Shown: positions 1 through 35,072, counted from the stretch's first letter. The stretch: DNA of 39,767 bases from Planctomycetota bacterium (GCA_036479435.1 JAZGFI010000153.1:1-39767); one strand, 5' to 3'. The notes: a model not told the origin generated them from the sequence alone. A program made the numbers and translations.

Positions 1-100
1 ATCACTTAGCGAACCCGTCTAACGAGGAGCCGGATGCGTCAATCGCGCACGTCCGGATCTGTGGGGGGCTGGGGAGAAAAATCTCCCTGGTCTACCCGAC
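1..100 (+). mobile_element. 3' end of a group II intron (domain V at ~27-60, domain VI at ~63-97); the rest lies upstream of the window
   Basis: GAGCCGGATGCG-TCAATCG-CGCACGTCCGGATCT is a full-length domain V with an AGC triad and AC bulge. GGG-GGGCTGGGGAGA-AAAA-TCTCCCTGGTCT-A-CCC is a domain VI stem with a bulged A at 94. The segment ends CTACCCGAC (AY terminus) at 100. Confidence 0.9.
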
Positions 101-175
101 GACTAAATTCTCCCGCTTTTTTAGGTCAGACCTAAAAAAGCGGGAGAATTTAGTCTGACGCCGTACAGCCGGTTT
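101..175. repeat. Palindromic REP/MITE-like element, copy R1
   Basis: Perfect 26-bp inverted repeat 101-126/130-155 with loop CAG. On the minus strand it begins AAACCG-GCTGTAC-GGCGTCAG and aligns with 14128-14182. Confidence 0.9.
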
Positions 176-1599
176 TAGTTTTTGGCGGGGTGGGTGTCGA
201 GGAGTTTGTAGCGGTTTTGGGATAGCTGCATGGCGATGACGAAGTGGGCGGTGGTGAAGGCGGAGCCGTTGCCGCGGTCGGAGTTGCTCGACAACTGACG
301 GCTTTCTTTGGTGGGGCGGGAGGTGATCGCGCCGTCTTGGTCGCGCTGGGCCATGATGTAGTCGCGGTAGAGGAGCCAAAACTTTTCGTAGGACTTCTCG
401 CCTTTGACGGCGGCGGCGAGCGCGCCGTTGAGGATATGCATGGCGGGGCTCACGTGGCCCTGAGGGAGGGTGTCGAATTCTCGGTCTACGAAATTCCACA
501 TGCTCTTGGATGTCTTGCCACGACGGCTCAACTGGCGAAAAGCCCAATAGGCCCCGGCAGTCCGGCCTGCGTCACCGTGGCCGGCTTGGCCTTTGCGCGT
601 GGAGTAGGCGACGCCTCCGCCCGAGGTGCAGGCCTTTACGTATTCGATGGCCTTGGCCCTTTTGTCTTGGTCCAGCACGACGCCGACTCGCTCGGCCATC
701 CCCATGCCCGCCATGCAGAAGTTACTCATGATTTCGAGTTCGAGATACTTGAGCGCATTGGGGCCGCCGGGGCCGTGCGCCCAGCCGCCGCTTTGCTCCT
801 GGTTTTCCTGAATTTTGGCGACGACTTTTTTGAGCAGAGACTTGGTTTCTTTGCTTCGTTTTTGCGCCAAGGATTCGGATAGCAAGATCGCACCGTAGCT
901 AAGACTCCAGTTTGTCTGATTCCAATTCGCCCCTCCGCCTTGACTCATGCGGTCGTCGTCATCGAGAACGTGTCGTTTCACGTATTTGAGGGCGCGTTGA
1001 TAGTTTTTCTTGTACTTCTTCCCGGCTCCCAAAAACGCAGGCCCTGCGAGTGCCGCACCGGCTGTGCCTTGGTTTTGGTTGGCGAAGACGTCCTTGAATT
1101 TGCCATCGCCGTCCTGTGTTGCCTTCAAAAACTTGAGAGCGTCACTCAAGATGCTCTGACTGCGATGGCACTTGGCGGGGGTGTTGCCCTTGAAACTGCC
1201 GAGAGCCGCAACTGCGATCGCCAGCTTGACTTCCTTGCCCTTACGCCGAACAACGAGCTTTAGAATGCCCGTCTTCTTGTTGGGGGCTTTTTTCGCTTCG
1301 GCATTCATGACTTGCTGGCAAAAAGCGTCGATCAAGGGGTCGCCGGTACCCTTCAGTTTATTGCCGTTGACCTTCAAGATGCGGTCGCCGACTTTCAGTT
1401 TTCCTTTGTCAGCGGGACCTTTAGCGTGGATGCGGCGGATATCGATCGTGCCACTCTCCGACCCGGGGAGAGCCTGCGCCCCTATTCCACCTAAAGGATA
1501 GTAGTCGGATTTGTCGCGGCGCGGGCCCTGAGCCAACGACGAAAGTGCTAACGCGGCTAGGAGAAGGCAGGAGAACAAAAAGGAGCGGCAAGATGGCAT
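175..1599 (-). CDS. Secreted PDZ-domain plus alpha/alpha-barrel (prenyltransferase/DUF6288-like) protein
   Basis: Signal-peptide-like N-terminus, PDZ motif GPADKGKLKVGDRILKVNG, and QW-like repeats (QDGDGKF, QEQSGGWAH, QRDQDGA). Confidence 0.75.
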   Translation of the reverse strand: MPSCRSFLFSCLLLAALALSSLAQGPRRDKSDYYPLGGIGAQALPGSESGTIDIRRIHAKGPADKGKLKVGDRILKVNGNKLKGTGDPLIDAFCQQVMNAEAKKAPNKKTGILKLVVRRKGKEVKLAIAVAALGSFKGNTPAKCHRSQSILSDALKFLKATQDGDGKFKDVFANQNQGTAGAALAGPAFLGAGKKYKKNYQRALKYVKRHVLDDDDRMSQGGGANWNQTNWSLSYGAILLSESLAQKRSKETKSLLKKVVAKIQENQEQSGGWAHGPGGPNALKYLELEIMSNFCMAGMGMAERVGVVLDQDKRAKAIEYVKACTSGGGVAYSTRKGQAGHGDAGRTAGAYWAFRQLSRRGKTSKSMWNFVDREFDTLPQGHVSPAMHILNGALAAAVKGEKSYEKFWLLYRDYIMAQRDQDGAITSRPTKESRQLSSNSDRGNGSAFTTAHFVIAMQLSQNRYKLLDTHPAKN

Positions 1600-10573: not shown

Positions 10574-13097
10574 GCAAAACTCATCGCACGAGCTCAAGGG
10601 TCAAAGCCTCGGGGCCAAAAAGCAGAACCTGAATCTCATCGGCAAGCCCTACCGGCGCGTCGATGGCGAGAGCAAGGTTACCGGCGGGACCATTTTCGCC
10701 GATGACTATCAGGCCCCGCGCACTTGCTTCATGCGGCTTGTGCGCAGCACCGTCCCGCACGCGACGATCAAGTCGATCGATACCACCAAGGCCGCCAAGA
10801 TGCCGGGCGTGCTCGGTTTTTTGACCGGACGCGAGATGCCCATCCCCTTTGGGATTTTACCGGTTTCTCACGATGAACACGCGCTGTGCATCGACAAGGT
10901 GCGCTTCGTCGGCGACCCCGTGGTCGCGGTAGCCGCCCTCACGGAAGACCAAGCCGCCGAAGCCGCCTTAGTCGTCGAGGTCGAGTACACGCCGCTTGCC
11001 ACGGTGGCGAGTGTCGTCGAGGCCATCAAAGAAAAAGACGACCTCATTCAGGACTACGGCGACGACGGCAATATCCACAAGCGCGTGTCGATGGAGTTCG
11101 GCGATGTCGACGCTGGGTTCGAAGATGCGGATGTCATTCTCGAAGATGACTTTTTCTTCGAGGGCAACACGCACTTACCCATGGAGCAGCACGCGACCGT
11201 CGCGATCCCAGAACCGGATGGCAAGGTCACGCTTTATTCTTCGACCCAGACCCCGCATTATTTGCACCGCTCGTTGACGAAAGTTCTGGAACTACCCGCG
11301 AGCCACATCCGCGTCATCGCCGCGCCGAACGGCGGCGGCTTTGGCGGCAAAAGCGACCCCTTCAACCACGAAGTAGCCGCGGCAAAGATGGCGCTGAAAC
11401 TCGGCCGCCCCGTGAAGATCGGACTCAACCGCGAAGAGGTCTTTTACTGCCACCGCGGTCGTCACCAAGTGCAGGGCTACATCCGCACCGGATTCAAAAA
11501 AGACGGCAGCATCACTGCGCAGCACCTAAAGACCGCCTTGGACGGCGGTGCCTACGGCAGCTACGGCGTCGCCAGCACCTACTACACCGGTGCGCTGCAA
11601 ACCGTGACCTACAAACTGCCGAAGTATCGCTTCGAAAGCCTGCGCGCCTTCACCAACAAGCCGCCCTGCGGACCCAAACGCGGTCACGGCACGCCGCAGC
11701 CGCGCTTTGGTTTTGAAACGCACCTCGACAAGGCGGCCCACAAGTTGGGCATCGATCCCGCGGACATCCGACTCAACAACCTCGTCGAACCGAATACGGT
11801 CACGGCGAACTACTTGAAAATCGGAACGATCGGTTTGCGAAAGTGCATCGAAGCCGTGATCGAAGGATCGGGTTGGCGCGAGCGCTACGGCAAACTTCCC
11901 GAAGGCCGCGGCCTCGGCTTAGCTTGCAGTTCGTATTTGTCGGGCGCGGGCCTGCCGATCTATTGGAATCACATGCCTCACTCGGGCGTGCAGATCAAGC
12001 TCGATCGCTCGGGCGGGGTCGCCGTCTTTTGCGGCGAGACGGAAATCGGGCAGGGCTCGGACACCGTGCTCGCGGCCTGCGTGGCCGAAGTGCTCGGCAT
12101 CAACCTCAAAGACATTCGCCTTTGCGTCGCCGACACGGACTTAACGCCGGTTGACCTCGGCAGCTACTCCTCGCGCGTGACCCTCATGGTCGGCAACGCT
12201 GCTATTCAGGCTGCCGAACGCGCCAAAGAAATGATCGCCAAAGCCGTGGCCAAAAAACTCGAAGTGCCGCCCTCGCGGCTTGGTTTTGCCGATCGCCGCG
12301 TCTTTGACGTCGAGAATCCCGAGACGGGAATGGACTGGCCCGAAGCCGTCATCGCCGCCGAGAGCGAGTTCGGAACTTTGGGCACCACGGGTTCTTACAC
12401 ACCGCCGCGCTCACCCGGTCGTTACCGCGGCGCGGGCGTCGGTCCCTCACCGGCCTATTCCTACAGCGCCTGTGTCTTGGAAGTCGAAGTCGACGTTCAC
12501 ACCGGGATGTACGAAGTCAAAGAAGTGTGGATGGGCCACGACGTCGGTCAGTGCATCAACGCCGCGAGCGTCATGGGCCAGATCGAAGGCTCGATCTACA
12601 TGGGCCTTGGCGAAGCGACGATGGAAGAAATGGTGTACCGCCGTTTGCCGAAGAATCGCTCGAACGCACTGGTCCACAAGTTTCCGTCCATGCTCGAATA
12701 CAAAAACCCGACCTTCCTCGACATGCCCAAGATGACGAGCTACGTCATCGAAGATCCCGACCCCAACGGCCCCTTCGGCGCGAAGGAAGTCGGGCAGGGA
12801 CCTTTGCTGCCGATGATGCCAGCCCTCGCCAACGCGATCTTCGACGCCGTCGGGGTTCGGATCGATCAAGTTCCGATCGGTCCGCACATGGTTCTGGACG
12901 CCTTGGAGAAAAAAGCCCGCGGACAAAACCCGCGCTTTGGCCCCAAGGCCTTTCCGACCTACGACTTTGGCACACCCCTGAACGTACCCACCGAAGCCGA
13001 AGGCGGCGATGGCAAGGCGACCAACGTCGAAGACGCCGGCTTAAGAAAAGATCGCGGCACCATGCCCGAACACAAAAAGGGAGGGGCTCGCTCATGA
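10566..13097 (+). CDS. hcrA: Molybdopterin-binding subunit, HcrA-like
   Basis: GGGFGGK, KRGHGTPQ, EIGQGS, GSYSSRVT, GQIEG and GPFGAKEVGQG; flanked by Fe-S and FAD subunits. Confidence 0.8.
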   Translation: MAKQNSSHELKGQSLGAKKQNLNLIGKPYRRVDGESKVTGGTIFADDYQAPRTCFMRLVRSTVPHATIKSIDTTKAAKMPGVLGFLTGREMPIPFGILPVSHDEHALCIDKVRFVGDPVVAVAALTEDQAAEAALVVEVEYTPLATVASVVEAIKEKDDLIQDYGDDGNIHKRVSMEFGDVDAGFEDADVILEDDFFFEGNTHLPMEQHATVAIPEPDGKVTLYSSTQTPHYLHRSLTKVLELPASHIRVIAAPNGGGFGGKSDPFNHEVAAAKMALKLGRPVKIGLNREEVFYCHRGRHQVQGYIRTGFKKDGSITAQHLKTALDGGAYGSYGVASTYYTGALQTVTYKLPKYRFESLRAFTNKPPCGPKRGHGTPQPRFGFETHLDKAAHKLGIDPADIRLNNLVEPNTVTANYLKIGTIGLRKCIEAVIEGSGWRERYGKLPEGRGLGLACSSYLSGAGLPIYWNHMPHSGVQIKLDRSGGVAVFCGETEIGQGSDTVLAACVAEVLGINLKDIRLCVADTDLTPVDLGSYSSRVTLMVGNAAIQAAERAKEMIAKAVAKKLEVPPSRLGFADRRVFDVENPETGMDWPEAVIAAESEFGTLGTTGSYTPPRSPGRYRGAGVGPSPAYSYSACVLEVEVDVHTGMYEVKEVWMGHDVGQCINAASVMGQIEGSIYMGLGEATMEEMVYRRLPKNRSNALVHKFPSMLEYKNPTFLDMPKMTSYVIEDPDPNGPFGAKEVGQGPLLPMMPALANAIFDAVGVRIDQVPIGPHMVLDALEKKARGQNPRFGPKAFPTYDFGTPLNVPTEAEGGDGKATNVEDAGLRKDRGTMPEHKKGGARS

Positions 13098-14122
13098 TGC
13101 GGCTACCGAGTTTTCGTTTCGCCCAAGTCGAGACCATCGAAGAGGCGGCAGCCCTGCTCGCCAAAGATCCCGACAACACCCGCCTCGTGGCCGGGGGCAC
13201 TGACCTTTGGCCCAACATGAAGCGTCGCCATCAACAGGCGGAAACTGTCGTGTCCTTGGCAAAGATCCCCGGCCTCACTGGCATCAGCGGTGACGGCAAG
13301 GCTGCCACCACCATCGGCGCCATGACCACCCTCACCGATATCGCCTCCAGCGAGTTCATGCAGGCCAACTACCCCGGAGTGGTGCGCGCGGTAGCTTCAA
13401 TCTCCGCCCCAGTACTGCGCAACATGGGAACGATCGGCGGCAACCTCTGCCTCGACACCCGCTGCACTTACTACAACCAAAACGAAGAGTGGCGGCGCTC
13501 GATCGACTACTGCATGAAGGAAAAGGGTTCGACCTGTTGGGTCGCTCCCAGTTCTTCGCGCTGTTGGGCGATTTCGGCCTCCGACGCCGCGCCGGTGCTC
13601 TGCGCCATCAACGCCGAAGTCGAACTGGTTTCCAAAAACGGCAAACGAACGATCCCCCTCGCCGACCTCTACCAAGACGACGGCATCAACTACTTGCTAA
13701 AAAGCCGCGACGAAATCCTCACCCGCCTCATCTTGCCCACGCCCGGCACTTGGAAAGCGACCTACTGGAAACTCCGCCGCCGCGGCTCCATCGACTTTCC
13801 CGTCCTCGGTGTCGGTGCCGCCATGAACTTCGCCCCCGACGGCAGCGTCCAAGACGCGCGCATCTTCCTCGGTGCCGTGCGCTCAGCTCCCACACGTTGC
13901 GAAGCCAGCGAACAAGCCATCATCGGCGCCCAACTCAACGAATCCAACATCGCCGAAGCCGCAACTTGTGCCCGCAAAGCCTCGTCCCCTCTCGACAACA
14001 CCGACTTCGTCGTCAACTGGCGAAAAAAGATGGTCGAGCGCTACGTCGAAGGAGCCCTCCGCGAACTCGGCAACCTCCCCGAAACCGTCAAGTCCCCTCC
14101 CCACGGCAACTGGGCCCAATAA
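13094..14122 (+). CDS. hcrB: FAD-binding subunit with [4Fe-4S] insertion, HcrB-like
   Basis: AGGTDL and RNMGTIGGNLC, plus the insert RCTYYNQNEEWRRSIDYCMKEKGSTCWVAPSSSRC typical of HcrB-type subunits; ATGA overlap with hcrA. Confidence 0.85.
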   Translation: MMRLPSFRFAQVETIEEAAALLAKDPDNTRLVAGGTDLWPNMKRRHQQAETVVSLAKIPGLTGISGDGKAATTIGAMTTLTDIASSEFMQANYPGVVRAVASISAPVLRNMGTIGGNLCLDTRCTYYNQNEEWRRSIDYCMKEKGSTCWVAPSSSRCWAISASDAAPVLCAINAEVELVSKNGKRTIPLADLYQDDGINYLLKSRDEILTRLILPTPGTWKATYWKLRRRGSIDFPVLGVGAAMNFAPDGSVQDARIFLGAVRSAPTRCEASEQAIIGAQLNESNIAEAATCARKASSPLDNTDFVVNWRKKMVERYVEGALRELGNLPETVKSPPHGNWAQ

Positions 14123-14127
14123 AACAA

Positions 14128-14190
14128 AAACCGACCATACGGTGTCAGACCAAATTCTCCCGCTTTTCTAGGTCAGACCTAATCATCCCG
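14128..14190 (+). repeat. Palindromic element copy R2 (left arm plus central hairpin)
   Basis: AAACCG-ACCATAC-GGTGTCAGACCAAATTCTCCCGCTTTTCTAGGTCAGACCTAATCATCCCG; close match to the reverse complement of R1. Confidence 0.88.
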
Positions 14191-14253
14191 AATAACTGCG
14201 ACCGGCACGAAACAGCATGCTCGAATACGAAAAGTAGGAGTGGATGCGTCAAA

Positions 14254-14712
14254 ATGGGCACAATGACGAATCAGTTTTATGGGCGCATTTTAGTGCCGGT
14301 CATGTTGATAGGTGCGATTGCCTATTTCATGGTGCTATTCGTCATTAGGGCAACTGGCGAATGTAGCAGCGGAATTGGAGACGCCATGTTGATCAATGGC
14401 GCATATAGAGTCGAGACTCTTGAAATAGTGGAAGCTGTTCTTGAAAATTGCGTTGTTGAGGCTAGAGACAATGGGCTGCGGACGTCCAAAGAGCTTGAGG
14501 GCTTTCTTGAGTCCGGGAGATTTCGGACGGGTTTCATGCCTAATAGAGGATGGGATCATGAAATTGGAATACGGCCCCGAGATCTAAATGGCAATCCTTT
14601 TCGAGTTTTCATCAGAACCGAGAGCTGGCCGATCGTCGTTACGGTGATTTCTGCGGGAAGAGACTGCGAATTCGGTACAGATGACGATATTAGTTTGTCA
14701 GAGAGCTTTTGA
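14254..14712 (+). CDS. Small membrane-anchored protein with a GspG/pseudopilin-like C-terminus
   Basis: N-terminal TM helix; DLNGNPF...VISAGRDCEFGTDDDI resembles the GspG motif DPWGNPY...SAGPDG...DDI. Visibly lower GC than its neighbours. Confidence 0.7.
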   Translation: MGTMTNQFYGRILVPVMLIGAIAYFMVLFVIRATGECSSGIGDAMLINGAYRVETLEIVEAVLENCVVEARDNGLRTSKELEGFLESGRFRTGFMPNRGWDHEIGIRPRDLNGNPFRVFIRTESWPIVVTVISAGRDCEFGTDDDISLSESF

Positions 14713-14719
14713 GACGTCG

Positions 14720-14793
14720 GAGAACGGAGTCAGTCTTCTTTCTCCCGCATTGCCAAATCAGATCCAGTGAACCGAAAGAAAGACGGCTGCCAC
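14720..14793. repeat. Degenerate palindromic element copy R3
   Basis: 14720-14747 matches 16580-16607 at 26/28 nt. AAATCAGATCCAG resembles AAATTAGGTCTGG, followed by a decayed right arm. Confidence 0.75.
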
Positions 14794-14844
14794 GACCGCC
14801 GCTGTCTCTGAATCCGTGACCAAGTCTCCCGTCACGATTCCGTG

Positions 14845-16381
14845 TCATTCCGGGCCGAAGATCTCAGCAAACTTCGATTCCAAGATTCCTACCTCTTCGT
14901 CGGTCAAGCCTTTGAGCTCTCCCGTTCTGTCGCGCTTGGATAGGCGACCGGAATTTTGGCGGAGGAAGCGGGTGGTGAGGTCGACCAAGCGGTCTGGCAT
15001 GTCCACGAGGTTTTTGATGAAGCGACTGAATTCATCGTGCTTCGCCAAGTAATTCACTTCTTCCGGCAGCGTCTTGGTGACCGTTTCTTCGACGAATCCA
15101 CACAGGAACTCTGCTTGCTTGCTGGCATCGAAGTATCGAAAAAAGTCAGCGGTCTCGTTCAGGACTTTGACGTTGCCCTCAATCGTCAGTCGCCAGTCTG
15201 TCAAATCGAGCCGCGGCTTGGAAAAGTGATCTAAGGTAGATTTGTAGGCTCCCAAGCGCTCAAGAATGGCGGCCGAAACCGGGAAGACAAGGCCCGGAGG
15301 GCCGAAGGCTCTCTCCGCCAAGATGTGGTGGAAAAGGTAGCGATGAAGGCGGCCGTTGCCGTCGACGAATGGGTGAATAAAGACAAACCCGAAGGCTATG
15401 ATCGTCGCTTCGAGTACGGGGTCATACTCACTGTTCTTAAGCAGCTCGTAGGTGTCGATGAGGCCCTGGAAGAGGTCTTTAAGATCCTTGGCTCGAGCAG
15501 AGATGTGGACGGGCATGGGCGCCTCCGTGCTCCGATCATGTTCACCAACAAAGCCCTCTTCGCGGCGGCAGCCCTGAGCCATGAAGCGATCGTCGGTGAT
15601 GACGATGCCCTGAGGTACTCAAACTCGTTGACGCTAAGCTCTCGCTGTCCCGCTTCGCCGATGATCCGCCCCCAGCGTTCGATGCGACTGTGCGCAGGTG
15701 TTTCGCCCTCGATGCGGTAAGAGGCAATCGAATCCTCCAGTAAGAGAAAAGCTGCGGCTCGACTCAAAAGTTCCGGGCGGGTTTCGCCGAGGTGATCGAC
15801 GGCGGCCCTTGAGATGTCTTGTGAGATGAACTTCTCGAGCTTCTTGGTCTTCCTAATGAGAGGGCAGAATTGCGGCGTGCCCGGCAAGTTGTTGCGAACC
15901 CGGTGGCGGCGTGAGTTCCTTGAGGGCCCCGGGTATTGGAACTTTTCGTTGACGAGGTCGACGTAGTTGCCGCGCGCGGCATTCTCGATCTTGAGGTCTT
16001 TGCCGGTGAGGCATTCGTAGAGAAACCAAAGTCGCCGACTGTAAGCCCCCGTCGGCTCGGCTCGAATAAGGTCAACAATCTGCTCGGCGTCGATGGCCAA
16101 GTACAGGGCCTTCAAGACTCCAAGGTCGAGGCCTTCGTGCTTCAGCGCGAAAGTAAGGTGGCCGCGCAGGCAATCTTTCGGCTGGTGCCGAATCGTGAAG
16201 ATGCGCCAGTTCCCAACCTCGCGTTTTTGGTGGGTGGGACCGATGGCGTACAGGTAGTCGGGAGTTGGCCCCAACCCTCAATCAATGCCGAATAACCAGC
16301 TAAGGCGATGGCACCCGGAACAGCAACCCCGTGAAAAACGGCGACTTCTCGTGAATTACGTTTATTGCCAGCCATTTCCAT
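14845..16381 (-). pseudogene. Fic family protein, frameshifted twice (near 16270 and 15613)
   Basis: Three consecutive frames join into one protein (GYSALIEG / PTPDYLYAIG...EFEYL / QGIVITDDRF...). The Fic motif HPFVDGNGRLHR is intact. Confidence 0.88.
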
Positions 16382-16478
16382 GAGTCTTTCCGACGAATAG
16401 GCCACGATCGCATGAAAAACGATTGTTCTCCATGAAAAGTGCTTATCTCGGCGATGAGACTCGAAAAATCATGAATTT
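16330..16478. promoter_or_regulatory. Array of C(A/G)TGAA motifs over the Fic start and promoter region
   Basis: Motifs at 16330, 16350, 16411, 16431 and 16470; 16330-16355 and 16411-16436 form an imperfect direct repeat. Confidence 0.5.
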
Positions 16479-16579
16479 CGGCGTGGCTCCATCCACTGCC
16501 CTGCCCCAGGATAGGTGTCGCGCATCTCCCTCGCTGCGGTGTGCTCACGTTCCAACCCGGTCGATCGGGCAAGCTGTAA

Positions 16580-16673
16580 GAGAACCGAGTCAGTCTTCTT
16601 TTTCCCGGGAAATTAGGTCTGGCCCTGACCTAATCAAGTGGGAGAAAGGAGACTGACACCAGTTAACCGGTTT
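16580..16673 (-). repeat. Palindromic element copy R4 (near full length)
   Basis: Minus strand AAACCG-GTTAACT-GGTGTCAGTCTCCTTTCTCCCACTTGATTAGGTCAGGGCCAGACCTAATTTCCCGGGAAAAAGAAGACTGAC. Confidence 0.88.
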
Positions 16674-17040
16674 ACTGGTTGCCGTCGAGGTCGGGAGCAA
16701 AGGAGCTGCCGCTGGTCGGCGATGCCTTGTCGACGGCGGGGGACCGAAAGCCGCGAAAAACAGGTCCGAGAAGTTCAAGAGGTTCGGGCCGCAGGCATTG
16801 TCGTTAATGCGGTAACGCCGGATTTCAGTGGTTCCGCTTCCAGCCCCCAAGACTTGGATGCCGCCCGCACCGCCAGCGACGAGGGTTCCGTGAATTCCCG
16901 TGTGATTGTCAATAGTGCAGCCACGATTCGTGGGTGAAGAACCCAAGCACAAGATCGCGCCGCCATCGGGAATCGTTTGCGAGGCCGCAGTCCCGAGCGT
17001 AGTTAAAAGGTCGATTGGGGGCTGGGGCTAAGTAGCAAAT
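16672..17040 (-). pseudogene. Remnant of a secreted beta-helix / choice-of-anchor-Q-like protein
   Basis: GGAILCLGSSPTNRGCTIDN, then after a frameshift SPAVDKASPTSGSSFAPDLDGNQ*. No credible start. Confidence 0.55.
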
Positions 17041-17151
17041 TCAGATCACAGCCTTGGGATCTGATGTGTGTTGCGTCGCGTAAGCTCTGCGGGCAGCGTT
17101 TGTTGAGCGAGAGTGGCTCGCGGCGATCGCTATCCACCGACGGAAAAGGGC

Positions 17152-18432
17152 ATGCTTCGATTCATCCATTTGGCCGACGTCCACCTCGATACACCCTTTC
17201 GCTCGCGCGACGCCGAGCTTCGGCAGGCTCTCGCCGAGGCGGGCCGTGAGGCTTTTCGCCGCGCGGTGACTTTGGCAGTTATTGAAAAGGCGCAGGCTTT
17301 TGTCATTGCGGGCGATCTCTTCGACAACGACCGACTTAGCTTCCGCACTGAAGTCTTGTTGCAAGAACAGTTCGAACGTCTCAACGATTCGGGGATCACC
17401 GTGGTCATCGCTACCGGCAATCACGATCCGGGGGGGCGCGATCTGCGCGCCTATCGGCGAGCTGACTCCTGGCCGAAGAGCCTTGTTTTGGCGCGCGGCA
17501 AAGACCTCGTCGAAACAACGATCCTCGATGGAAATGGTCGTGCCCTGGGAACCATCGCCGCAATCGGCCACGCGACGGCACGGGAAGCTGAGAATCTCGT
17601 GAGGCGTTTTGGTCGTCCCAACCCGAAACTCCCTTCTGTCGCCGTCTTGCACACTCAAGTCGAGTCGGCCGTCGCCGCCGCCAAGCACGAACGCTACGCT
17701 CCTTGTTCGCTTGAGGATCTGAGAACTCGGTCCTACGACTACTGGGCGCTCGGCCATGTACATCTTAGGCAAGAGTTGTCAAAGCAACCCGCCGTTCACT
17801 ACCCCGGCAACTTGCAGGGCCGACACTTTGGGGAAACCGGGGCCAAGGGGGCCTTGCTGGTCGAGATCGACGGCCCCGGGGAGCAGCCGCGCGTTTTTTT
17901 TCGCGACCTTGCGCCGATTCGTTGGGACCTTCTTCAGCTCAACGATCTATCAGGTGTCGAGAGTGCGACCGAGCTCATCGACCGTGCCGCACGGGCTTAC
18001 GACGGTATGCGTGATCATGCGGCGTCGGTGCATGGTTATCGCGGCGACGCTCGACACTTGTTGCGTATCAAGTTGATCGGGCCATGCCCAATGGCCGGGG
18101 CTTTGAATTTTCCAGAAGAAGCCAAAGCGCTCGGCGAGTTAGCGCGCGACGAGCTCGATGCCTTGCATGTGGAGTGGGACGTCAGCGAGTTGCGAGCTCC
18201 CTACGATGTTGCCTCTTTACGAGAACGTTCGCGCATTCTGGACGGCGCCTTCTCACTTCTAGAGGGCTTGCGATCCGGAGAGGTCTCATGGGACGAGCTG
18301 GGGACTGGCCCGCTCGCTTCTCTTGGAGCTAGCCACGAAGTTCGACATCGAGATTCCCTGGGCCGCGACCGAATTCTGTCGTCACTCGAAGAGCTTCTCG
18401 CCGAAGCCATGACCGACGAGGCTGGACCGTGA
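17152..18432 (+). CDS. SbcD/Mre11/YhaO-type metallophosphoesterase (DNA repair exonuclease)
   Basis: FIHLADVHLD, AGDLFD, GNHD, DYWALGHVH and YPGNLQGR. Confidence 0.93.
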   Translation: MLRFIHLADVHLDTPFRSRDAELRQALAEAGREAFRRAVTLAVIEKAQAFVIAGDLFDNDRLSFRTEVLLQEQFERLNDSGITVVIATGNHDPGGRDLRAYRRADSWPKSLVLARGKDLVETTILDGNGRALGTIAAIGHATAREAENLVRRFGRPNPKLPSVAVLHTQVESAVAAAKHERYAPCSLEDLRTRSYDYWALGHVHLRQELSKQPAVHYPGNLQGRHFGETGAKGALLVEIDGPGEQPRVFFRDLAPIRWDLLQLNDLSGVESATELIDRAARAYDGMRDHAASVHGYRGDARHLLRIKLIGPCPMAGALNFPEEAKALGELARDELDALHVEWDVSELRAPYDVASLRERSRILDGAFSLLEGLRSGEVSWDELGTGPLASLGASHEVRHRDSLGRDRILSSLEELLAEAMTDEAGP

Positions 18433-20249
18433 AAATTGATCGGATTCAGATCGACGCTTACGGCCGTCTCCGCGATTGGCGACATGGTGATCTGCAAGAC
18501 GCGAAGCTCATTGTGCTGCTGGGCGGCAACGAGTCCGGAAAATCTAGCGTGCTTAGTTTTCTAGAGTCAATGCTCTACGGCTTTGCGCCGGGGCGGGCCA
18601 GCGAACACCCCTACTTTCCTTGGGACGGCGGAGGGTGTGGCGGATCATTGCAGTTGTCGACCGAAGACGGCGAGTCCTTGGATCTTCGTCGTAGTCTAAA
18701 AGACCGTCCGCTATCTTGGCTTCACCGCGGCGCAGAATCCAAACCCATCGCCAACGCAGCTCTACTGAAAAATTGGCCGTCACGCTTGGCCTACCGCCGC
18801 GTGTTCTATTTAGATCACGAAGAGTTGGCCCGGCCCACGGCAGCCGTATGGCGTGAGCTCGAAACACGGCTGGCATCGGGCTGGGACGGTCCTTCCTTTC
18901 GCGATCCTTCAGAAGCGGTGGCATTGCTGCACCGTGAGGCCAAGGCGCTGTGGCGACCTGATCGTCGTGGTCGTCCGTCGGCGAGCCGACTTACAGAACG
19001 CCTCAATCGCCTCGCTGAACGCCGCCGTACCGCGCTTGGGGATCGAGACCGGATGGACGAACTAAAGCGACAATCCGAGGATCAGCGGCGGGCCCTCGAA
19101 TTGTCCACGGCGCGCAAACGGCAACTTGAAGAGTGGGGCGCGGAGGCAGAGCTGCGCCGTCCATTGAAGGGCATGCGCCAGCAGTTGAGGCTGCGATCCG
19201 CAGATTTGAGGCTCCTTGAAGATGAATTGGCATCGGCCGAGGCATCTGCCGTTGCCGACAATGTCATCGCCAAAAAGCCCCAACCCGTCATGCCCTGGGC
19301 GGCGGCGATCGTCGCGACCGTTGGCCTAAGCTTGCTCGGCTGGATGCATCCGGTCGTTGGCATCTTGTTGCTGGCTATGGCCGCAGTCTTCATCATCCAC
19401 CGTAGTCGGCGGCAGATGGTCAGCGCGCAGTTGACACTCGATACTCAAAACAAAGAGCGCATCGCGCGGCGACGGGCGTCAATGACTCGGGCGGCGGCAG
19501 CCATGACCGCCGAGAAATCCGAGATCGACAGGCTGGAGTCCACCCTCGGCCGATCGCATCCTCAAGGTCTTGAGCCCCGGGAAATGCGCGAGGAGATTTC
19601 AGTTTTGTCGCGCAGGATCAGCTCTTTACTCCAGGCTCAAGGTCGAGTGGATGCCGAACTCCGCCGGCTGTCGGGGGCAGCGTCCGTCGATGATATCGAT
19701 GGCGAGGTGGATGCGATCAAAGAAGAACTCGACGAGGTTAGACTGCAACGGGATCGAAGAAACGTCGCCGCGACTATCTTGGAACGAGTTCGTTGCGAAC
19801 TGGGCGATGGCCTATCGCCCCGCTTCGTCGAGCGCGCCTCCACGATCTTCAACGCGCTGACTCGCGGTCGCTACCAGGGGCTTTTCGCCCTTGAAGAGGC
19901 GGGGCGCCCCCGCCTTTACCTGCGCCGATCCAAGGGCACAGAGCCAGTCCCCGCGCAAGCTCCGGTTTCCCGCGGTACGGCCCAGCAGGCCTGGCTGGCC
20001 TTTCGACTTGCGCTCGTCGATGATCTTGACCGCGCGGCCGATCGGCTTCCCCTACTTTTGGACGAAGTCTTTTCGGAATGGGATCGGCATCGCATCGACG
20101 GTGCGGCCCAGATCCTCGAGGAGATGAGCGAACACCGGCAGATCTTCATTGCGACCGCGCGGCCCGAACTGGCTACCGCCTTTCGCCGCCGCGGGGCCGT
20201 GGTCATCCGCTTGGAGACCGAAGAAGAATCTGCCGGTGAGATCAGCTAA
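18429..20249 (+). CDS. YhaN/SbcC-like coiled-coil ABC-type ATPase (AAA_27)
   Basis: Walker A GGNESGKS, signature VSRGTAQQ, Walker B LLLDEVF, coiled coils and a central hydrophobic segment; GTGA overlap with the nuclease gene. Confidence 0.88.
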   Translation: MKIDRIQIDAYGRLRDWRHGDLQDAKLIVLLGGNESGKSSVLSFLESMLYGFAPGRASEHPYFPWDGGGCGGSLQLSTEDGESLDLRRSLKDRPLSWLHRGAESKPIANAALLKNWPSRLAYRRVFYLDHEELARPTAAVWRELETRLASGWDGPSFRDPSEAVALLHREAKALWRPDRRGRPSASRLTERLNRLAERRRTALGDRDRMDELKRQSEDQRRALELSTARKRQLEEWGAEAELRRPLKGMRQQLRLRSADLRLLEDELASAEASAVADNVIAKKPQPVMPWAAAIVATVGLSLLGWMHPVVGILLLAMAAVFIIHRSRRQMVSAQLTLDTQNKERIARRRASMTRAAAAMTAEKSEIDRLESTLGRSHPQGLEPREMREEISVLSRRISSLLQAQGRVDAELRRLSGAASVDDIDGEVDAIKEELDEVRLQRDRRNVAATILERVRCELGDGLSPRFVERASTIFNALTRGRYQGLFALEEAGRPRLYLRRSKGTEPVPAQAPVSRGTAQQAWLAFRLALVDDLDRAADRLPLLLDEVFSEWDRHRIDGAAQILEEMSEHRQIFIATARPELATAFRRRGAVVIRLETEEESAGEIS

Positions 20250-24445: not shown

Positions 24446-27400
24446 ATGAGCGAAGAATTGCCCGAGGAAGACTCAGCATCGGTCCCGCCCGCCGTGGATT
24501 GGATCGGAATCGAAATCGAGTTCGACGCCCGCATCAACTTTGCGATGGAGCAAAACGACGTCCCCGTCGTGAAGATCTTGCGCCTTTCGCGACTCGGCTT
24601 GGACGCTGAGAGCCGCGATGGTGGCGATGAGAGCGATGAGAATTTAGGGGCGTTCCGCGATCTTGAGATCACTATCGAGATCAAAGCCGATTTCGCCAAG
24701 CCGGTAAGGCTTCACCTGAGCCGGATCGATCCCGGTCAAACCGTGGTCTTGGACCGCGTCGATCTTCGGCCACGCCCCGAACGCTTGGCCCAACAAATCG
24801 AAAGCGAGTTCACCACGCTCACCACGACGGTGCGAGCGCAGGGTCGCATCTTGGGCCTAGACGAGCAGCGCTTAGAGATCTTGCCCTTTAATCACTGGCC
24901 CGCGGATGCTGCGCCACCCGAGATCCTGGCCGCTTTCTGCCTCCCCAATCACCCCGGCATCGAAGCGACCGTAGCCGCGGCGCGCCCGTACTTGGCCCGG
25001 CTGACCGGGTCCGACAGTTTCGACGGTTACCAATCAAAGGACTCACGGCGTGTTCAGGCAATGGTGCACGCGATATACATAGCGACCCGCGATCTGGGAT
25101 TTGGCTACGCCAATCCCCCGGCCAACTTCGAGACTCAAGGCCAAAAGGTCCGCCTCCCCGAACAAATGCTCGCCAACAAACTTGGCACCTGCATCGATTT
25201 GGCTTTGTTTTTGGCGGCCGCCTTAGAGCAAGCGGGGCTCGCTCCGATCTTGATTTTGCTGAACGGGCATGCCTTTGTGGGCTGTTGGCTGCACGAACAA
25301 CGCCTGCTCGAGCCCTCGATAAGTGACGGCTCCTACTTTCGAAAGTTCGCCAACCTCGGTGGTCTCGTCTTTGTCGAGGCCACGGGACTCACGACGGCGC
25401 CTCCCTTGGATTTCGAGGAGGCCGTTGAGGCCGGGCTTCGAGGTTTGTCCGACGAGCGAACGTTCCTTTACGGCATCGACATTAAGGGCTGCCGTGACGT
25501 CGGGGTTACGCCCTTGCCGTTTCGCCGCGAGGACGGTGTTTTGGTCATCGAGCCTCGGGCACGAGAAAAAACCGATCCCTCTTCCAAGACGGGCGAAGCG
25601 GAATCTCCTGAGGCCGGTGAGCCGGGGCTCAAGCTGCGCGAAGTCGTGCGAGGGCCCGCGCGCGTCGAGCACTGGAAACGGCGGCTGCTTGACCTTTCTT
25701 TGAACAACCGCTTCCTCAACTTTCGACCGACGAAGAAGACTCTCGCCCTCGAAGTTCACGACCTCGCGGTCCTCGAAGACGCGCTCGTCAGCGGCAGCAA
25801 GTTCACGATCTATGGCCGTCCCCAGGCCATCGAAGGCCAGGGCATTCGCGATCTTGACCGGCGGCTTGAGCAAACCGGTGAAGACCTTCGCCGCGACTAT
25901 TTCGTGGACCAATTCAAAGACAAACGACTGTTTTCGACGGTGGAACAAGGCGAGACCGAATCCAGGTTATTGGAGATCTATCGCCAAGCGCGGCGGACGC
26001 TCGAAGACACCGGTGCCAATACTCTTTATCTCGCCCTAGGTTTTTTGAAGTGGTCGGAAGTCGAAGGGGCTGAAACACGCCTTCGCGCCCCCATCCTTCT
26101 GCTTCCCGTGTCTTTGACCAGAAAGTCCGCACGCGAGGACTTTCGCCTGGTCCTAGGCGATGAGGAACCACGGGTCAACGTCACCTTGCTGGAGAAACTT
26201 CGGCAGGATTTCGGCCTGGATACGAAGGAACTCGAAGAACTCCCCGAGGACGAACGCGGTCTCGATATTGGCGAGATCTTAGCGCGCTGGCGTGCCGCGG
26301 TGCTGACGATAGCAGGCTGGGACGTCGAAGAAAGCGCGTCGCTAGCCCTCTTCACCTTCTCGAAGTTCATGATCTGGCAAGACCTTGAAAGCAATGTCGA
26401 AGCCCTCATGGCCAATGACTTGGTGCGGCACTTGATCGACCGGCCGGGCGAAGATTTCCGGCGGCAAGACCAAGAACCGCTAACTCCCGAGTCCCTTGAC
26501 CGCGAAGTAGCGCTGCGCGATATTTTCTGCCCCCGTGACGCCGACAGCACCCAGCTCGCCGCCGTGGTCGCCGCCACCCAGGGCCACTCTTTTGTGCTGC
26601 AAGGTCCGCCAGGGACCGGCAAGTCACAGACGATTACGAATCTGATTGCCCAGGCCTTGGCGGAGGGCAAGCGCATCTTGTTCGTGGCCGAGAAAATGGC
26701 GGCCTTAGACGTCGTGAAGGATCGTCTGGACGCCGAGGGCTTGGGCTTTGCGTGTTTGGAGATCCACTCCAACAAGGCGTCGAAACGAGTCGTCTTGGAT
26801 CAACTGCAAGAGGCGCTCGAGGTCAGCGAAAGCAAAAGCCCCGCGCGTTGGGAGCAAGCGGTGACGCGCTTCGAAACCTTGCGCGATGATCTGAACGCTT
26901 ACGTGCAAACCCTTCACGAACCGGGGAGTTTTGGGCTTTCGGTTTTCGAGGCAACCGGCCGCGTGGTGGCGCTGCGAGGTTCCTCGCGGGTACTGATAGA
27001 CGCCGCGACCCTCGCTGGCCTCGATGCCGAGACTTACGAGCAAGATGCTGAACTGACATCGGCCTTGGCGACCGCGGTCATGGCGGTTGAACAAGTAGCA
27101 CCCTTATCATCACACCCGCTTCAAGGAGTGGGCCTTGGCGATTGGCGGCCCACTTTGCCGAGGGATTTCCAGTCTCAGCTAAGAGCCCTTGAAAGTGCCG
27201 CGACCAAGGCCGAGGCCGGGTTCTCGGCTCTGGCCCCTGATCTTGAGCTAAACCCGGAAACTAATGCCAACCTCGATCTTTCGGCCCTACTCCCCGAGGC
27301 TCTAGAATTTCTCACCGGTCCGCGACCTTTGCTTGCAGAGTGGATATCGACGACGGGCTGGACCGAACGATGCGCCCGTGTCCATGAGTTGTTGGCCGAT

Positions 27401-30400
27401 GGTGAGCAGCTCAAGGTCATTGAGAATGATCTCGCCTTGCGATGGGAAGTTGGCGAAGAACCTCAGCATCCTTCACAGCTGGCTTCGCGCTGGCGGGACT
27501 TGGATAACAGCTTCTTCGTGGCGCGTTGGTGGGGGCGTCGCAAGATCATAAAAGAGCTTGAGCCTTGGCGTGGCGGCCGAACCTTACCGGATGCAGCGCA
27601 GGTCTTAGAGGATCTTGGCCACGCACAGCGGCTGCGTGAACTCCAAACGTCGATTGAAAAGGCGGATGAATCAGGCCGCGCGGCCTTTGGCGCGGCCTGG
27701 CTTGGGCTCAACTCAGATTGGCCCCGACTAAGATCCGCCTTCGAAGACGGAGAACGCCTACGCGCCACTCTGCAAACTATACGTCGGGCAAAACCCAAAC
27801 TCAGTCGGAACTTCGAAGACCGTTGGCTAGCCCTTTGCACCGACGCCGGCGATGAAGTAACACCGGGCGAAATCTTGGCCGATCGGGTGGCGGACCAAAT
27901 CCGTCTTGAGTCGGAGCTACTCCAAGCCCGGGAGGCGCTCGCCGACTTGTTGCAAGCTAGAGAAGGTGCCTTCTTCGCTGCAGGTGACGAAAAAGAATGC
28001 CTCTACGGCCGTCAGGTCCGCCGGGCTCAATGCTGGTGGGAAAGCCGTGAGGCTCTTCGCGATTGGTGCCACTTCCAGCGAGTTCTTACGAGCGCGAATG
28101 ATCGCGGACTTGGGGCGTTCTGCGACGCCATGCAGTCGGGAGATCTTAGGGCGTCCGAGCTGTCGCAAGTCGTGGAGCGCTCGCGATTGGAGACTTGGCT
28201 TGAGGACCGCTTCGAATCGCAGCCTCGGTTGCGGCAGTTCAATCGCGGAGCTCACGAGTCGAACTTGGCCGAGTTTAGGCGGCGTGACAAGGAGCTGATG
28301 GCCTTGAACCGTCAAGTCGTGGCGGCCCGCGTCCAGGCGCGTTTACCGAAGACCAGCGGTACTGAAGTCAAAGGCTCTGAGCTGGCCTTGCTTCGCCGCG
28401 AGATCACCAAAAAGGCCCGGCACAAATCGATCCGGCGCCTTTTGGCTGAAGCCCCGAATGTGATCGCTCGACTGAAGCCCTGCCTACTGATGAGCCCTTT
28501 GAGTGTCTCCCAGTATTTAGATCCCGCTCTTTTTGCTGCGGCCGATATCGTCGTCTTCGACGAAGCCTCGCAGATCCCAGTCTGGGATGCGATTGGAGCT
28601 TTGGCGCGGGGCAAGACGGCCGTCGTTGTCGGCGACACTAAGCAGTTGCCGCCAACCGCGTTCTTTCAACGCGCGCACACCTTCGTCGTTGACGACTATG
28701 ACCTCGATGCAAAGGCGGGTGATGACGAGGCCGCCGAGGAAGAGATTCCGGAAGACCTCGAAAGCGTTTTGGATGAGTGCCTACTGAACCTCCGTGAGAT
28801 GCGACTCGGCTGGCATTACCGCAGCCGTCATGAGAGTCTCATCGCCTTCAGCAATCACCACTACTACGGCAATAGCCTGTTTACTTTTCCCAGCCCCGGT
28901 GAAGCGTCTGATCGCGTTGGTGTCTCGCACCGATTCGTCGAGGACGGCGTCTACGACCGCGGCCGCAGTGCCGCCAACCGCATCGAGGCGGAAGCCTTGG
29001 TCGCCGATCTCCTCATCCGGCTGCGCGACGCTGAGGAAGATCGCAGTTTCGGGATCGTGGCTTTCAGTCAGGTTCAGCAGAAGACGATCGAGGACCTTTT
29101 GGAAAAGGCGCGGGCTCGCCATCCCGAGATTGAGCGGCATTTTCACGAAGGCGATGCCGAGGCTTTGTTCGTCAAGAATCTTGAGAATGTCCAGGGCGAT
29201 GAACGCGACGTCATCATGTTTTCGGTGGGCTACGGCCGGGATGATACCGGGCGCCTCATGATGAACTTCGGTCCTTTGAACCGACCGGGCGGCGAGCGAC
29301 GTCTGAATGTCGCGATCACCCGCGCCCGCGAACAGCTTGTGGTCTATTCCTCGATCCTGCCCGAAGACATTGACCTCAGTCGCACCCGGGCTTTGGCCGT
29401 GAAACATCTGAAGGTGTTTTTGGAGTACGCGCGGCGGGGCCCCTCGGTGTTGGCGCCGCTCGACGACGAGGTGGAAGCAAAAGATGAGGCCCAGAAAAAG
29501 GCGCCGTTGCGGAAGCTCGGGCCTGGCTTCGTTGAATCTCTCGGCGCAACCCTTCGAGCGCGCGGTCACGAAGTTGCCACGAGAGTTGGCTCGTCTTCTT
29601 ATCGAGTGGATTTAGCCCTTCGCGATCCCAAAAACCCCGATCGCTTTTGGTTGGGAATCGAGTGCGACGGCCAAAACTACCGCGATGCCGCCACGGCCAG
29701 GGATCGCGATCGCATTCGCCCTGAAGTCATGGGACATCTCGGCTGGGAGCTACACCGCGTGTGGTGCGTCGATTGGTGGCAAGATCCCGACGGTGAGCTG
29801 GATCGGATCGAGGCGCACTTGGCCGCGGTGGCCGAGGCCGCGGCGACCGAGGCCGCCGTATTCGAGATTGAGATTGAGGTTGAGGCTTCGTCCGATGGCG
29901 ACGCCAATGAAGATAGGGGAGATGACGACCCTGAGAATCCGGCTGAAGTCCACGAGACCGAAGAGGCCTATGGCGAAGCTCCGGCGGAATCTCCACGCTT
30001 CGCGGTCTACCCGGCCATTGCGCCCGCGCCCGAGTTAGGAATTGGAAAGGCGATCTACAGCAAGGAGATGAGCGCGAAAGTTGTAGAGCGCCTAGCCGAA
30101 GTCATCGACGCCGAGGCACCCTTGCATCTCGACCTTTTATGTCGTCGGCTGACCGATTGTTTTGAGGGCTCACGTCTCACCGACAAGTTGCGCAACTTTG
30201 TGGGCCATCACCTCGCGCTTCACGCCGAATCCTTTTCATCTGAGATCCGTGGCGATCAAGTCTGGCCACGCGGTTCCTTAAGCGAGCACTATGAACTTGT
30301 CCGCCAGCCCGAGGACGGCGAAAGCCGCGACCTCGGCGAGATCGCCACTGAGGAATTGGCTAACGCCGTGGTGCTCGTACTGCGCGACCAGATTGCGCTC

Positions 30401-30550
30401 GATCGCGGCGATCTCCATCGCGCCACGGCGGCCCTATTCGGAACCAAGAGGGTGGGGACCAAGGTCGCGGCGGCCGTCGATCGGGGATTGGAGGCCGTCA
30501 CCAGCAAGGGTCTCGCCCGCATCGAAGGCGAACGCGTGATCTACACCTGA
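24446..30550 (+). CDS. Large transglutaminase-like + DUF4011 + SF1 (UPF1-like) helicase + Vsr/MTES_1575-like nuclease + DUF3320 protein (Hhe-like)
   Basis: WKRRLLDLSLNNRFLN (DUF4011); helicase motifs QGPPGTGKS, FDEASQ, GDTKQLPP, HYRS, NVQGDERD and RRLNVAITRAR; nuclease RVDLA...GIECDG...RDRDRIR...GW..HRVW; N-terminal GTCID...GHAF. Confidence 0.88.
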   Translation: MSEELPEEDSASVPPAVDWIGIEIEFDARINFAMEQNDVPVVKILRLSRLGLDAESRDGGDESDENLGAFRDLEITIEIKADFAKPVRLHLSRIDPGQTVVLDRVDLRPRPERLAQQIESEFTTLTTTVRAQGRILGLDEQRLEILPFNHWPADAAPPEILAAFCLPNHPGIEATVAAARPYLARLTGSDSFDGYQSKDSRRVQAMVHAIYIATRDLGFGYANPPANFETQGQKVRLPEQMLANKLGTCIDLALFLAAALEQAGLAPILILLNGHAFVGCWLHEQRLLEPSISDGSYFRKFANLGGLVFVEATGLTTAPPLDFEEAVEAGLRGLSDERTFLYGIDIKGCRDVGVTPLPFRREDGVLVIEPRAREKTDPSSKTGEAESPEAGEPGLKLREVVRGPARVEHWKRRLLDLSLNNRFLNFRPTKKTLALEVHDLAVLEDALVSGSKFTIYGRPQAIEGQGIRDLDRRLEQTGEDLRRDYFVDQFKDKRLFSTVEQGETESRLLEIYRQARRTLEDTGANTLYLALGFLKWSEVEGAETRLRAPILLLPVSLTRKSAREDFRLVLGDEEPRVNVTLLEKLRQDFGLDTKELEELPEDERGLDIGEILARWRAAVLTIAGWDVEESASLALFTFSKFMIWQDLESNVEALMANDLVRHLIDRPGEDFRRQDQEPLTPESLDREVALRDIFCPRDADSTQLAAVVAATQGHSFVLQGPPGTGKSQTITNLIAQALAEGKRILFVAEKMAALDVVKDRLDAEGLGFACLEIHSNKASKRVVLDQLQEALEVSESKSPARWEQAVTRFETLRDDLNAYVQTLHEPGSFGLSVFEATGRVVALRGSSRVLIDAATLAGLDAETYEQDAELTSALATAVMAVEQVAPLSSHPLQGVGLGDWRPTLPRDFQSQLRALESAATKAEAGFSALAPDLELNPETNANLDLSALLPEALEFLTGPRPLLAEWISTTGWTERCARVHELLADGEQLKVIENDLALRWEVGEEPQHPSQLASRWRDLDNSFFVARWWGRRKIIKELEPWRGGRTLPDAAQVLEDLGHAQRLRELQTSIEKADESGRAAFGAAWLGLNSDWPRLRSAFEDGERLRATLQTIRRAKPKLSRNFEDRWLALCTDAGDEVTPGEILADRVADQIRLESELLQAREALADLLQAREGAFFAAGDEKECLYGRQVRRAQCWWESREALRDWCHFQRVLTSANDRGLGAFCDAMQSGDLRASELSQVVERSRLETWLEDRFESQPRLRQFNRGAHESNLAEFRRRDKELMALNRQVVAARVQARLPKTSGTEVKGSELALLRREITKKARHKSIRRLLAEAPNVIARLKPCLLMSPLSVSQYLDPALFAAADIVVFDEASQIPVWDAIGALARGKTAVVVGDTKQLPPTAFFQRAHTFVVDDYDLDAKAGDDEAAEEEIPEDLESVLDECLLNLREMRLGWHYRSRHESLIAFSNHHYYGNSLFTFPSPGEASDRVGVSHRFVEDGVYDRGRSAANRIEAEALVADLLIRLRDAEEDRSFGIVAFSQVQQKTIEDLLEKARARHPEIERHFHEGDAEALFVKNLENVQGDERDVIMFSVGYGRDDTGRLMMNFGPLNRPGGERRLNVAITRAREQLVVYSSILPEDIDLSRTRALAVKHLKVFLEYARRGPSVLAPLDDEVEAKDEAQKKAPLRKLGPGFVESLGATLRARGHEVATRVGSSSYRVDLALRDPKNPDRFWLGIECDGQNYRDAATARDRDRIRPEVMGHLGWELHRVWCVDWWQDPDGELDRIEAHLAAVAEAAATEAAVFEIEIEVEASSDGDANEDRGDDDPENPAEVHETEEAYGEAPAESPRFAVYPAIAPAPELGIGKAIYSKEMSAKVVERLAEVIDAEAPLHLDLLCRRLTDCFEGSRLTDKLRNFVGHHLALHAESFSSEIRGDQVWPRGSLSEHYELVRQPEDGESRDLGEIATEELANAVVLVLRDQIALDRGDLHRATAALFGTKRVGTKVAAAVDRGLEAVTSKGLARIEGERVIYT

Positions 30551-34981: not shown

Positions 34982-34991
34982 TCGATTCCAT

Positions 34992-35065: not shown

Positions 35066-35072
35066 CTCAAAG

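Follow-up and report, generated by a model that had tools for sequence, protein, structure and literature searches.

The hcrB-yhaO interval

The window, that is the whole stretch of DNA analysed here, comprises 39,767 nt of a Planctomycetota bacterium (GCA_036479435.1, JAZGFI010000153.1:1-39767), whose genome of 5.47 Mb is referred to as G000; C-numbers denote contigs. Between an hcrB-like gene and a pair of genes named YhaO- and YhaN-like in an earlier note on this DNA lies an interval in which three repeats, R2, R3 and R4, are interspersed with accessory genes; a fourth repeat, R1, lies near the start of the window (Table 1). The earlier note had proposed an undescribed, possibly integron-like or REP-mediated system of gene capture, parasitised by a group II intron. 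Repeats R2, R3 and R4 are non-autonomous copies of a terminal inverted repeat (TIR) that belongs to a Y1 transposase encoded on contig C289 of the same genome. The hcrB-yhaO locus as it stands is a decaying accessory patch, with no ordered array, dedicated attachment site or uniform cassette orientation.

Table 1. Features of the window, with positions counted from its first nucleotide. Strands of R2-R4 follow the arm model and are opposite to the labels of the earlier note.
Feature	Position	Strand	Description
Group II intron 3' end (domains D5/D6)	1..100	+	Rfam RF00029 at 25-100, 42.9 bits
R1	101..176		Near-consensus TIR dimer, perfect 27-bp stem; left arm split by the intron
hcrB-like FAD subunit gene	13094..14122	+	Conserved flank; TIGR03195 273 bits, under the cut-off of 404
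R2	14126..14182	-	One near-consensus arm (14126-14168, 4/33 off consensus) plus the central palindrome of a dimer
Orphan low-GC open reading frame (ORF)	14257..14712	+	GC 0.474; start uncertain (14236/14257/14263)
R3	14717..14751	-	Divergent single TIR arm, 12/33 off consensus; outer end at the stop of the low-GC ORF
Fic-domain pseudogene	14845..16405	-	Family of about 520 aa
R4	16580..16673		Divergent TIR dimer with arms at 16583-16609 (left) and 16636-16660 (right)
Decayed gene fragment ending at R4	16672..17027	-	Weakly beta-helix/PMP-like
YhaO-like metallophosphoesterase and YhaN-like AAA/SMC pair	17113..20249	+	Conserved right flank; names from the earlier note

The low GC content noted before for the orphan ORF was borne out, as 0% of the 3678 called genes of G000 fall below 0.47, and its description as pseudopilin-like has a lead in GspG-like features predicted with the ESM Atlas (0.94). 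Homologue searches returned the ORF itself alone among 18 candidates, and itself with two weak partial matches in a library of 1.84 billion. It is probably the youngest arrival at the locus. The Fic gene is indeed broken: all seven intact homologues of 517-528 aa (7/7) aligned to it in two frames, with the switch near 15600-15640. A contig from an independent study (run X3) spans this stretch with two substitutions and no gaps, which rules out an assembly error as the cause of the break. From the ORF layout a second break is probable near 16270, and the codon use of the pseudogene is host-like. The gene at the far side of R4 does end there as described, its TAA at 16672-16674 (minus strand) overlapping the right outer end of the repeat; its designation as a secreted protein proved weak. 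No Pfam or NCBIfam match was found for this fragment, the best blastx hit had an E value of 0.4, and the Atlas prediction of a beta-helix/PMP-like protein (0.91) came with recognition under the threshold.

The repeats are terminal inverted repeats of a Y1 transposase

The transposase gene (G000:C289:21303-22295; 330 aa) lies exactly between outward-facing double arms of the repeat, and the ends of this element, 50 nt long and inverted, are 90% identical. Its product matched PF01797 with 33.4 bits (cut-off 23), and THFHLL and YIDANP, corresponding to the HUH and Y---NP signatures, are present in the ORF. The match to NF047646 (59.8 bits) was under the cut-off of 80. At the C-terminus a weak match to Sigma70_r4_2 (267-296, E 0.0025, under the cut-off) and no match to Bac_DnaA_C were obtained. 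Judged from its sequence, the protein is a TIRYT, an HUH/Y1 enzyme like those of RAYT group 1 or TnpA-Y1 subclass 2.1.

A profile of the repeat arm, whose scores are inflated by training on the family's own copies, gave 85 matches in G000, 57 of them at E<0.01, compared with two in a reversed-genome control (E at least 1.1). The 85 matches form 53 loci of single arms, tandem arms and dimers of about 90 nt, located in extragenic space as inverted doublets, with the core TACGG(C/A/T)GTCAG. Single arms have no significant fold (z -0.34 and -0.20), and the consensus lacks a GTAG foot. Homologues of the transposase were found in four of eight genomes of the same family, in none of 14 other genomes of the order and, across the phylum, in 52 of the 401 genomes sampled. 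Inverted ends were present at 26 of 30 scoreable TIRYT loci, two of them G000's own, after removal of 3 of 33 loci at contig edges. Enrichment of the TIR motif was counted in five of the eight same-family genomes: three that carry the transposase had 54, 276 and 118 matches (controls 8, 17 and 10), whereas the TIRYT-less genomes G001 and G005 had 3 and 5 (controls 12 and 16).

Such an arrangement matches the TIRtrons described by Di Nocera et al. (2013, PMC3733652), with their TIRYT transposases and scattered families of TIRs; Quentin et al. (2018, PMC6006769) treat TIRYT as equivalent to TnpA-Y1 subclass 2.1 and RAYT group 1. The system is thus of an already known, little-studied kind rather than undescribed, and the term REP-mediated was right in kind, the repeats being TIRs of a Y1 transposase. 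As far as the consulted parts of PMC3733652 go, the likeness extends to an HUH/Y1 gene between inverted repeats without a GTAG hairpin, to dispersal of the repeat as singles, dimers and groups, and to the presence in a single genome of two TIRYT genes and two families of TIRs. The published proteins are long, with a C-terminal helix-turn-helix (HTH) extension; the protein of G000 has 330 aa and the weak C-terminal match given above. The majority motif there is GGGGWSAS, of which GG(C/A/T)GTCAG shares 7/8 positions, and some published TIRs lack the motif. The same portions of that text do not mention abutment on stop codons, enrichment at synteny breaks, intron homing or a compositional gradient in flanking genes.

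The REPIN-RAYT systems, in the sections of the literature seen, share the inverted doublets of about 90 nt in extragenic space, the singlets, the clusters and a low-copy trans-acting transposase (PMC3116915, PMC5581495, 10.1101/2021.07.10.451892). REPINs are, however, tied there to group 2 and 3 RAYTs, and the canonical REP/REPIN unit is a hairpin with a GTAG/GGAG foot, present in hundreds of copies. The arms of G000 have no internal hairpin (z about -0.3) and no such foot, and occupy about 50 loci.

Several further loci of this kind were seen. A second TIRYT of G000 (C144:44285-45310, L022), 42% identical to the first, is accompanied by a separate dispersed family of repeats, for which 34 exact motif matches were counted (control 0). 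In the relative G003 the site orthologous to the G000 TIRtron (G003:C1:347847-349879, L088) contains, in place of the transposase gene, a cluster of TIRs with an unrelated gene of 600 aa; no right-hand TIR was found at this site. Another G003 locus (contig C27, L067, 5266-8638 in the locus) consists of a TIR dimer, a 657-aa gene, a TIRYT gene and a TIR dimer with a further gene, lies between two genes adjacent in G000, and is possibly a cargo-carrying TIRtron. TIR dimers on C24, C172 and C194 of G000 have an identical outer flank on one side, which probably belongs to the end of a different multicopy element; this could be a second intron (C24:80-1564).

Repeat copies at the locus

R3 (14720-14747) and the left arm of R4 (16580-16607) were confirmed as direct repeats of 28 nt with 26 identities that bracket Fic, and this 28-mer occurs at these two places only in the 5.47 Mb, with up to four mismatches allowed. 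The proposal that R2 and R4 form the inverted ends of a 2.5-kb segment held for their outward-facing orientation, but as ends they are unmatched, differing at 12/33 positions; the closest kin of R2 are copies on other contigs, with four differences. Likewise, of the supposed hairpin sites R4 folds significantly (z -5.1, 0/200 shuffles), and R2 (z -0.2) and R3 (z -1.6) do not. An origin of R2 and R3 as decayed dimers was rejected, their best right-arm matches (15 and 16 of 33) being equalled by 40% and 19% of random windows. A donor of the R3/R4 variant was sought with a 21-nt pattern; its two matches in the genome contig collection, neither in a repeat context, were taken as chance.

A group II intron in the TIR core

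The intron end at the start of the window is 100% identical to 13 other contig places and interrupts the TIR core, with GCGTCA on one side and GAC on the other. A full copy (G000:C135:664-2694) has 2031 nt and encodes a reverse transcriptase of 426 aa. The junctions, GTCA^GAC, lie inside the arm: all 15 of the 15 5' junctions end in GTCA, and 13 of 14 3' junctions start with G. A single hexamer resembling exon-binding site 1 (EBS1), TGACGC, is complementary to the TIR core and lies at nt 223 of the intron, where a loop is predicted; D5 begins with GAGC (AGC triad). Introns of class IIC, including the IIC-attC group, insert after a DNA hairpin and have a short D5 with a CGC triad. Parasitism of the repeat by the intron stands, but the AGC triad and the match of the EBS1-like hexamer to the repeat speak against the IIC-attC-like mode proposed for it. 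The sequence complementarity suggests homing by base pairing with the TIR core rather than by recognition of a structure. No report of intron homing into TIR or REP sequences was found by title or abstract opening among the matches listed, most subscription papers lying outside the search. About 15 near-identical intron copies break contigs at TIR cores, and a third related repeat family is also used.

Relation to integrons

In integrons the repeat sites lie directly behind stop codons, and group II introns (IIC-attC) land on the repeat. The TIRs resemble them in lying behind stops and in serving as an intron landing site; they differ in the lack of attC boxes, the symmetric dimers, the mixed orientation and an HUH rather than tyrosine-recombinase chemistry. 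No RYYYAAC/GTTRRRY boxes were found at R2-R4 (0/3) or in dimers (0/17); when the box was made degenerate, a less strict scan picked out one perfect dimer. The strict scan overlooked the genome's own attC sites, and an nhmmer search was used instead: the attC family of G000 gave ten matches at E of 1 or below, five on the intI contig and none in the window. The ORF (plus strand) and Fic (minus strand) converge on R3, and R4 is a dimer, so there is neither a uniform orientation nor one site per cassette. No promoter, attI-like anchor or transposase was found next to the hcrB-yhaO array.

The repeats could still be atypical attC sites of a CALIN-like outstation served in trans by the genome's integrase, since a bona fide IntI is encoded (C63:3996-4937, 435 bits, cut-off 265) and the ORF is short, low in GC and orphan, as cassette genes often are. 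With no R''/R' boxes, no window match to the attC family, and a Y1 transposase flanked by the same repeats, this explanation is largely refuted and hardly credible, and the integron-like label was dropped. The genome does have a complete integron (G000:C63:1-4937, L161), consisting of intI and five attC-like sites on its 3'-end side.

Placement behind stop codons and a synonymous-site gradient

Across G000, 37 of 59 outer ends of arms are no more than 30 nt away from the stop codon of a gene that runs towards the arm, compared with 11-22% of random intergenic positions. R1 adjoins with its right outer end the TAA of the gene at 175-1536 (minus strand), the outer end of R2 is 4 nt past the hcrB stop, and R2, R3 and the right arm of R4 all obey this placement. 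The count scored the last as a miss, its broken gene being absent from the gene calls. As the placement is family-wide, a repeat after a gene is ordinary for the family and not the mark of a special array. A preference for TAA at the adjoining stops (27/35 in G000) was rejected, as it was not replicated in G003 (0/34 TAA). The TIR loci also cluster: of the 50 considered, six pairs lie close together where 1.2 would be expected (P 0.001), and there is one triple (P 0.009).

Genes that end at the TIRs have a gradient at synonymous sites. In the 34 G000 genes ending at outer arms, the fourfold sites of the last 20 codons contain 0.68 C and 0.12 G, as against 0.44 and 0.26 in 3224 others (P 3e-8); the effect fades by about 200 codons, and at twofold sites A and C are likewise favoured. 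The gradient was present for three repeat families of G000 (33, 18 and 18 genes) and in G003 (34 genes, P 7e-5), and flanks of TIRtrons in other genomes showed a stronger effect near than far in 13 of 15 cases (P 3e-4). It was not seen at 117 genes with intrinsic terminators or at 2035 other operon ends. At the locus itself, the last 80 codons of hcrB (within 13500-14122) have one G at 45 fourfold sites, as against G fractions of 0.25-0.44 in 16 orthologues. This hcrB gradient is confined to G000 among the 16 orthologues, and 77 metagenome homologues have no end effect. The last codons of the fragment at 16672-17027 are C-rich (11/16 fourfold sites). The low-GC ORF has no gradient, which would fit a recent arrival beside an old site.

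The gradient may be a polar scar of mutations left by nicking with strand displacement, or it may reflect selection for Rho loading ahead of a REP-like terminator. Proteins encoded at G000:C147:4668-5765 and C267:21104-22756 match a Rho-like P-loop pattern and are candidates for Rho-like proteins. One REP of E. coli is reported to terminate transcription in a partly Rho-dependent manner (10.64898/2026.03.23.713779). For a strand effect independent of gene direction, the results from genes pointing away were mixed: eight in G000 were shifted to G (C.34/G.37 vs.44/.28), whereas a stricter three-family set of ten (P 0.43) and 11 genes of G003 (P 0.76) showed no shift. Specificity for TIRs was rejected, as the motif lies near only 10 of 80 strongly skewed windows; the strongest of these covers intI (skew 0.55, the genome maximum), and three end at tRNAs. 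No description of such a gradient was found among the literature matches listed, in a search with most subscription papers outside it.

A comparable skew was noted elsewhere in the window. At 33983-35066 the plus strand has an excess of C over G of +0.34 over 700 nt before tRNA-Pro, crossing a minus-strand response regulator gene whose coding strand is G-rich at fourfold sites. Like skews precede tRNA-Val (C90) and tRNA-Asn (C176), making 3 of 44 tRNAs in all.

Possible gene exchange at the repeats

Sites and neighbours were compared between G000 and G003 on four whole G003 contigs (1.42 of about 5 Mb, 1055 called genes, 592 orthologues, 44 TIR loci). Only TIR junctions touching a syntenic gene were counted, and gaps below 60 nt and junctions within non-syntenic blocks were removed. 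Non-conserved junctions made up 22 of the 26 with TIRs and 156 of the 294 others (Fisher P 0.002), and the odds ratio after stratification by orientation was 3.5 (P 0.039). For three of the 11 TIR-abutting G000 genes, a TIR lies at the corresponding gene end in G003 (background 28/592, P 0.013). Sites kept between the genera with changed neighbours are the hcrB end, the end of a gene on C56 and the TIR cluster at the G000 TIRtron site. Local copying of the repeat is evident from the spacers, which were at least 0.8 similar in 7 of 15 neighbouring dimers and in 8.8% of 793 distant pairs (P 6e-5); four of the seven similar pairs are inverted and three direct. A TIR-gene-TIR unit of G003 (C11:27565-29242), in which near-identical clusters in direct orientation surround one secreted-protein gene, occupies a site that is empty in G000, and the G000 homologue of this gene (38% identity) is located elsewhere and also ends at a TIR. 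The contents of the hcrB-yhaO interval differ among relatives: G001, G003 and G005 keep the linkage of the flanks with other content between them, and in G003 a TIR dimer follows hcrB at its stop, with a single arm further inside the interval.

From the family identity, stop-codon placement, clustering, local duplication, persistence of some sites between genera and enrichment at synteny breaks, the account that we favour, at roughly even odds (about 0.5), is that TIRYT places copies of its ends at gene stops, frequently close by, and that the resulting long-lived sites of nicking and homology are preferred, non-exclusive junctions for opportunistic gain and loss of genes. The enzyme would nick single-stranded TIR DNA and copy arms or dimers, often to nearby gene ends, and sites of nicking and repair, together with homology between copies, would be favoured junctions for foreign genes. 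Here a tolerant interval would be bounded by the old dimer R4 and by a TIR, also old, at the stop of hcrB; in it Fic would have come to sit between two copies of the left arm of R4 and the low-GC ORF would have arrived last.

A number of observations weigh against this account. The synteny comparison is of a single pair from different genera, with genes from the author's own caller, and gives no order of cause and effect; no congeneric genome was found, the best hcrB match having 62% identity among 80 metagenome hcrB loci retained. Within single orientation classes the break enrichment was not significant (P 0.24 and 0.10). A TIR borders 10 of 87 G003-specific blocks, and both borders of 4 of 87. 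In the TIR-less G001 and G005 the interval holds three other genes and no motif, and G006 differs again. The 63 genes next to TIRs in G000 were not atypical in codon score or GC (P 0.11 and 0.14), and no TACGG-type TIR motif was found within about 1.5 kb of Fic homologues in 11 other genomes or of the G000 paralogue.

These data could instead be explained by passive co-location, in which REPIN- or MITE-like TIR copies hop into gene-end space made by ordinary horizontal transfer and have no causal role, R3 being a local hop from R4. The variable interval in TIR-less relatives, the 77 of 87 blocks without a border TIR, the host-typical flanking genes and the occurrence of neighbour duplicates in both orientations are as expected from it, and clusters and tandem copies of REPINs are described in the part of PMC3116915 consulted. 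It fits poorly with the three sites that persisted between genera as their neighbours changed, and with the highly diverged R3 abutting a gene without signs of residence (no gradient, lowest GC), for which arrival of the gene at an existing arm fits better than a recent hop. We hold passive co-location to be possible but less likely.

Alternatively, TIRYT could run a dedicated cassette system, excising an arm with its gene as a single-stranded circle and reinserting it at other arms, with direct repeats such as those around Fic as the product; it would be an attC-free counterpart of integron cassettes. The private duplicate around Fic, the direct cluster pair around the G003 secreted-protein gene at a site empty in G000, and the abutment of arms on stop codons, as with attC sites, would all agree with it. 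However, four of the seven similar neighbour pairs are inverted, which integration of a circle by a single crossover would not yield; R2 and the right arm of R4 are unmatched, Fic homologues lack TIRs, the flanking genes are mostly core-like, and there is no promoter or attI-like anchor or transposase beside the array. Such a system is unlikely. Circular or skipping junctions at R2-R4, for which a read search had been suggested, were absent from the contigs of 4 of 11 listed runs (X2, X3, X7 and X8), contigs being uninformative on rare events as they drop rare variants; X2 may be the source itself, and the coverage of X7 and X8 is patchy. One listed skip, 15409-15880 (depth 3, side 26), falls inside Fic, and the joint 12000/14121 comes from a further copy of a repeat. 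Shuffling of genes at the repeats has indirect support from the G003 breaks and the R3/R4 duplicate, and several tests went against a dedicated cassette system.

The nearest published proposal concerns subclass 2.1 TnpA-REP elements beside prochlorosin genes (Laurenceau et al., 10.1101/2020.03.09.984088). They belong to the same subclass and were proposed to diversify or mobilise their neighbours, and the genes face the element; unlike here, no TIRs were found there and the cargo is one gene family. Those authors added in a note that there was no strong evidence for causation (10.1101/2020.03.09.984088).

One could speculate, at long odds, that group 1 RAYT/TIRYT enzymes run a genome-wide, integrase-free gene exchange, in which long-lived TIRs at stop codons are nicked repeatedly, genes are taken up and released with duplication of arms, and a polar scar (G/T-rich strand outward, fading over about 500 nt) is left in the adjacent core gene. 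If true, this would be a host function for domesticated transposases with a readable footprint of activity. The host role of RAYT/TIRYT transposases is an open question in the portions of the literature seen (PMC5581495), and PMC3733652 calls for functional tests. The defined pair of enzyme and repeat, occurring in 52 of 401 genomes of the phylum, bears on this question. Its three measurable correlates, namely stop-codon placement, breakpoint enrichment with local duplication, and the synonymous gradient, make REP-mediated gene capture a hypothesis that can be taken to the bench.

Other parts of the window

The stretch after tRNA-Pro (35066-39767) is island-like, with lower GC, a DUF1580 protein and a pair of a HigB-like toxin and an HTH/Peptidase_M78 protein. 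At 24446-30550 a protein of 2034 aa is encoded with DUF4011, helicase and REase_MTES_1575 regions.

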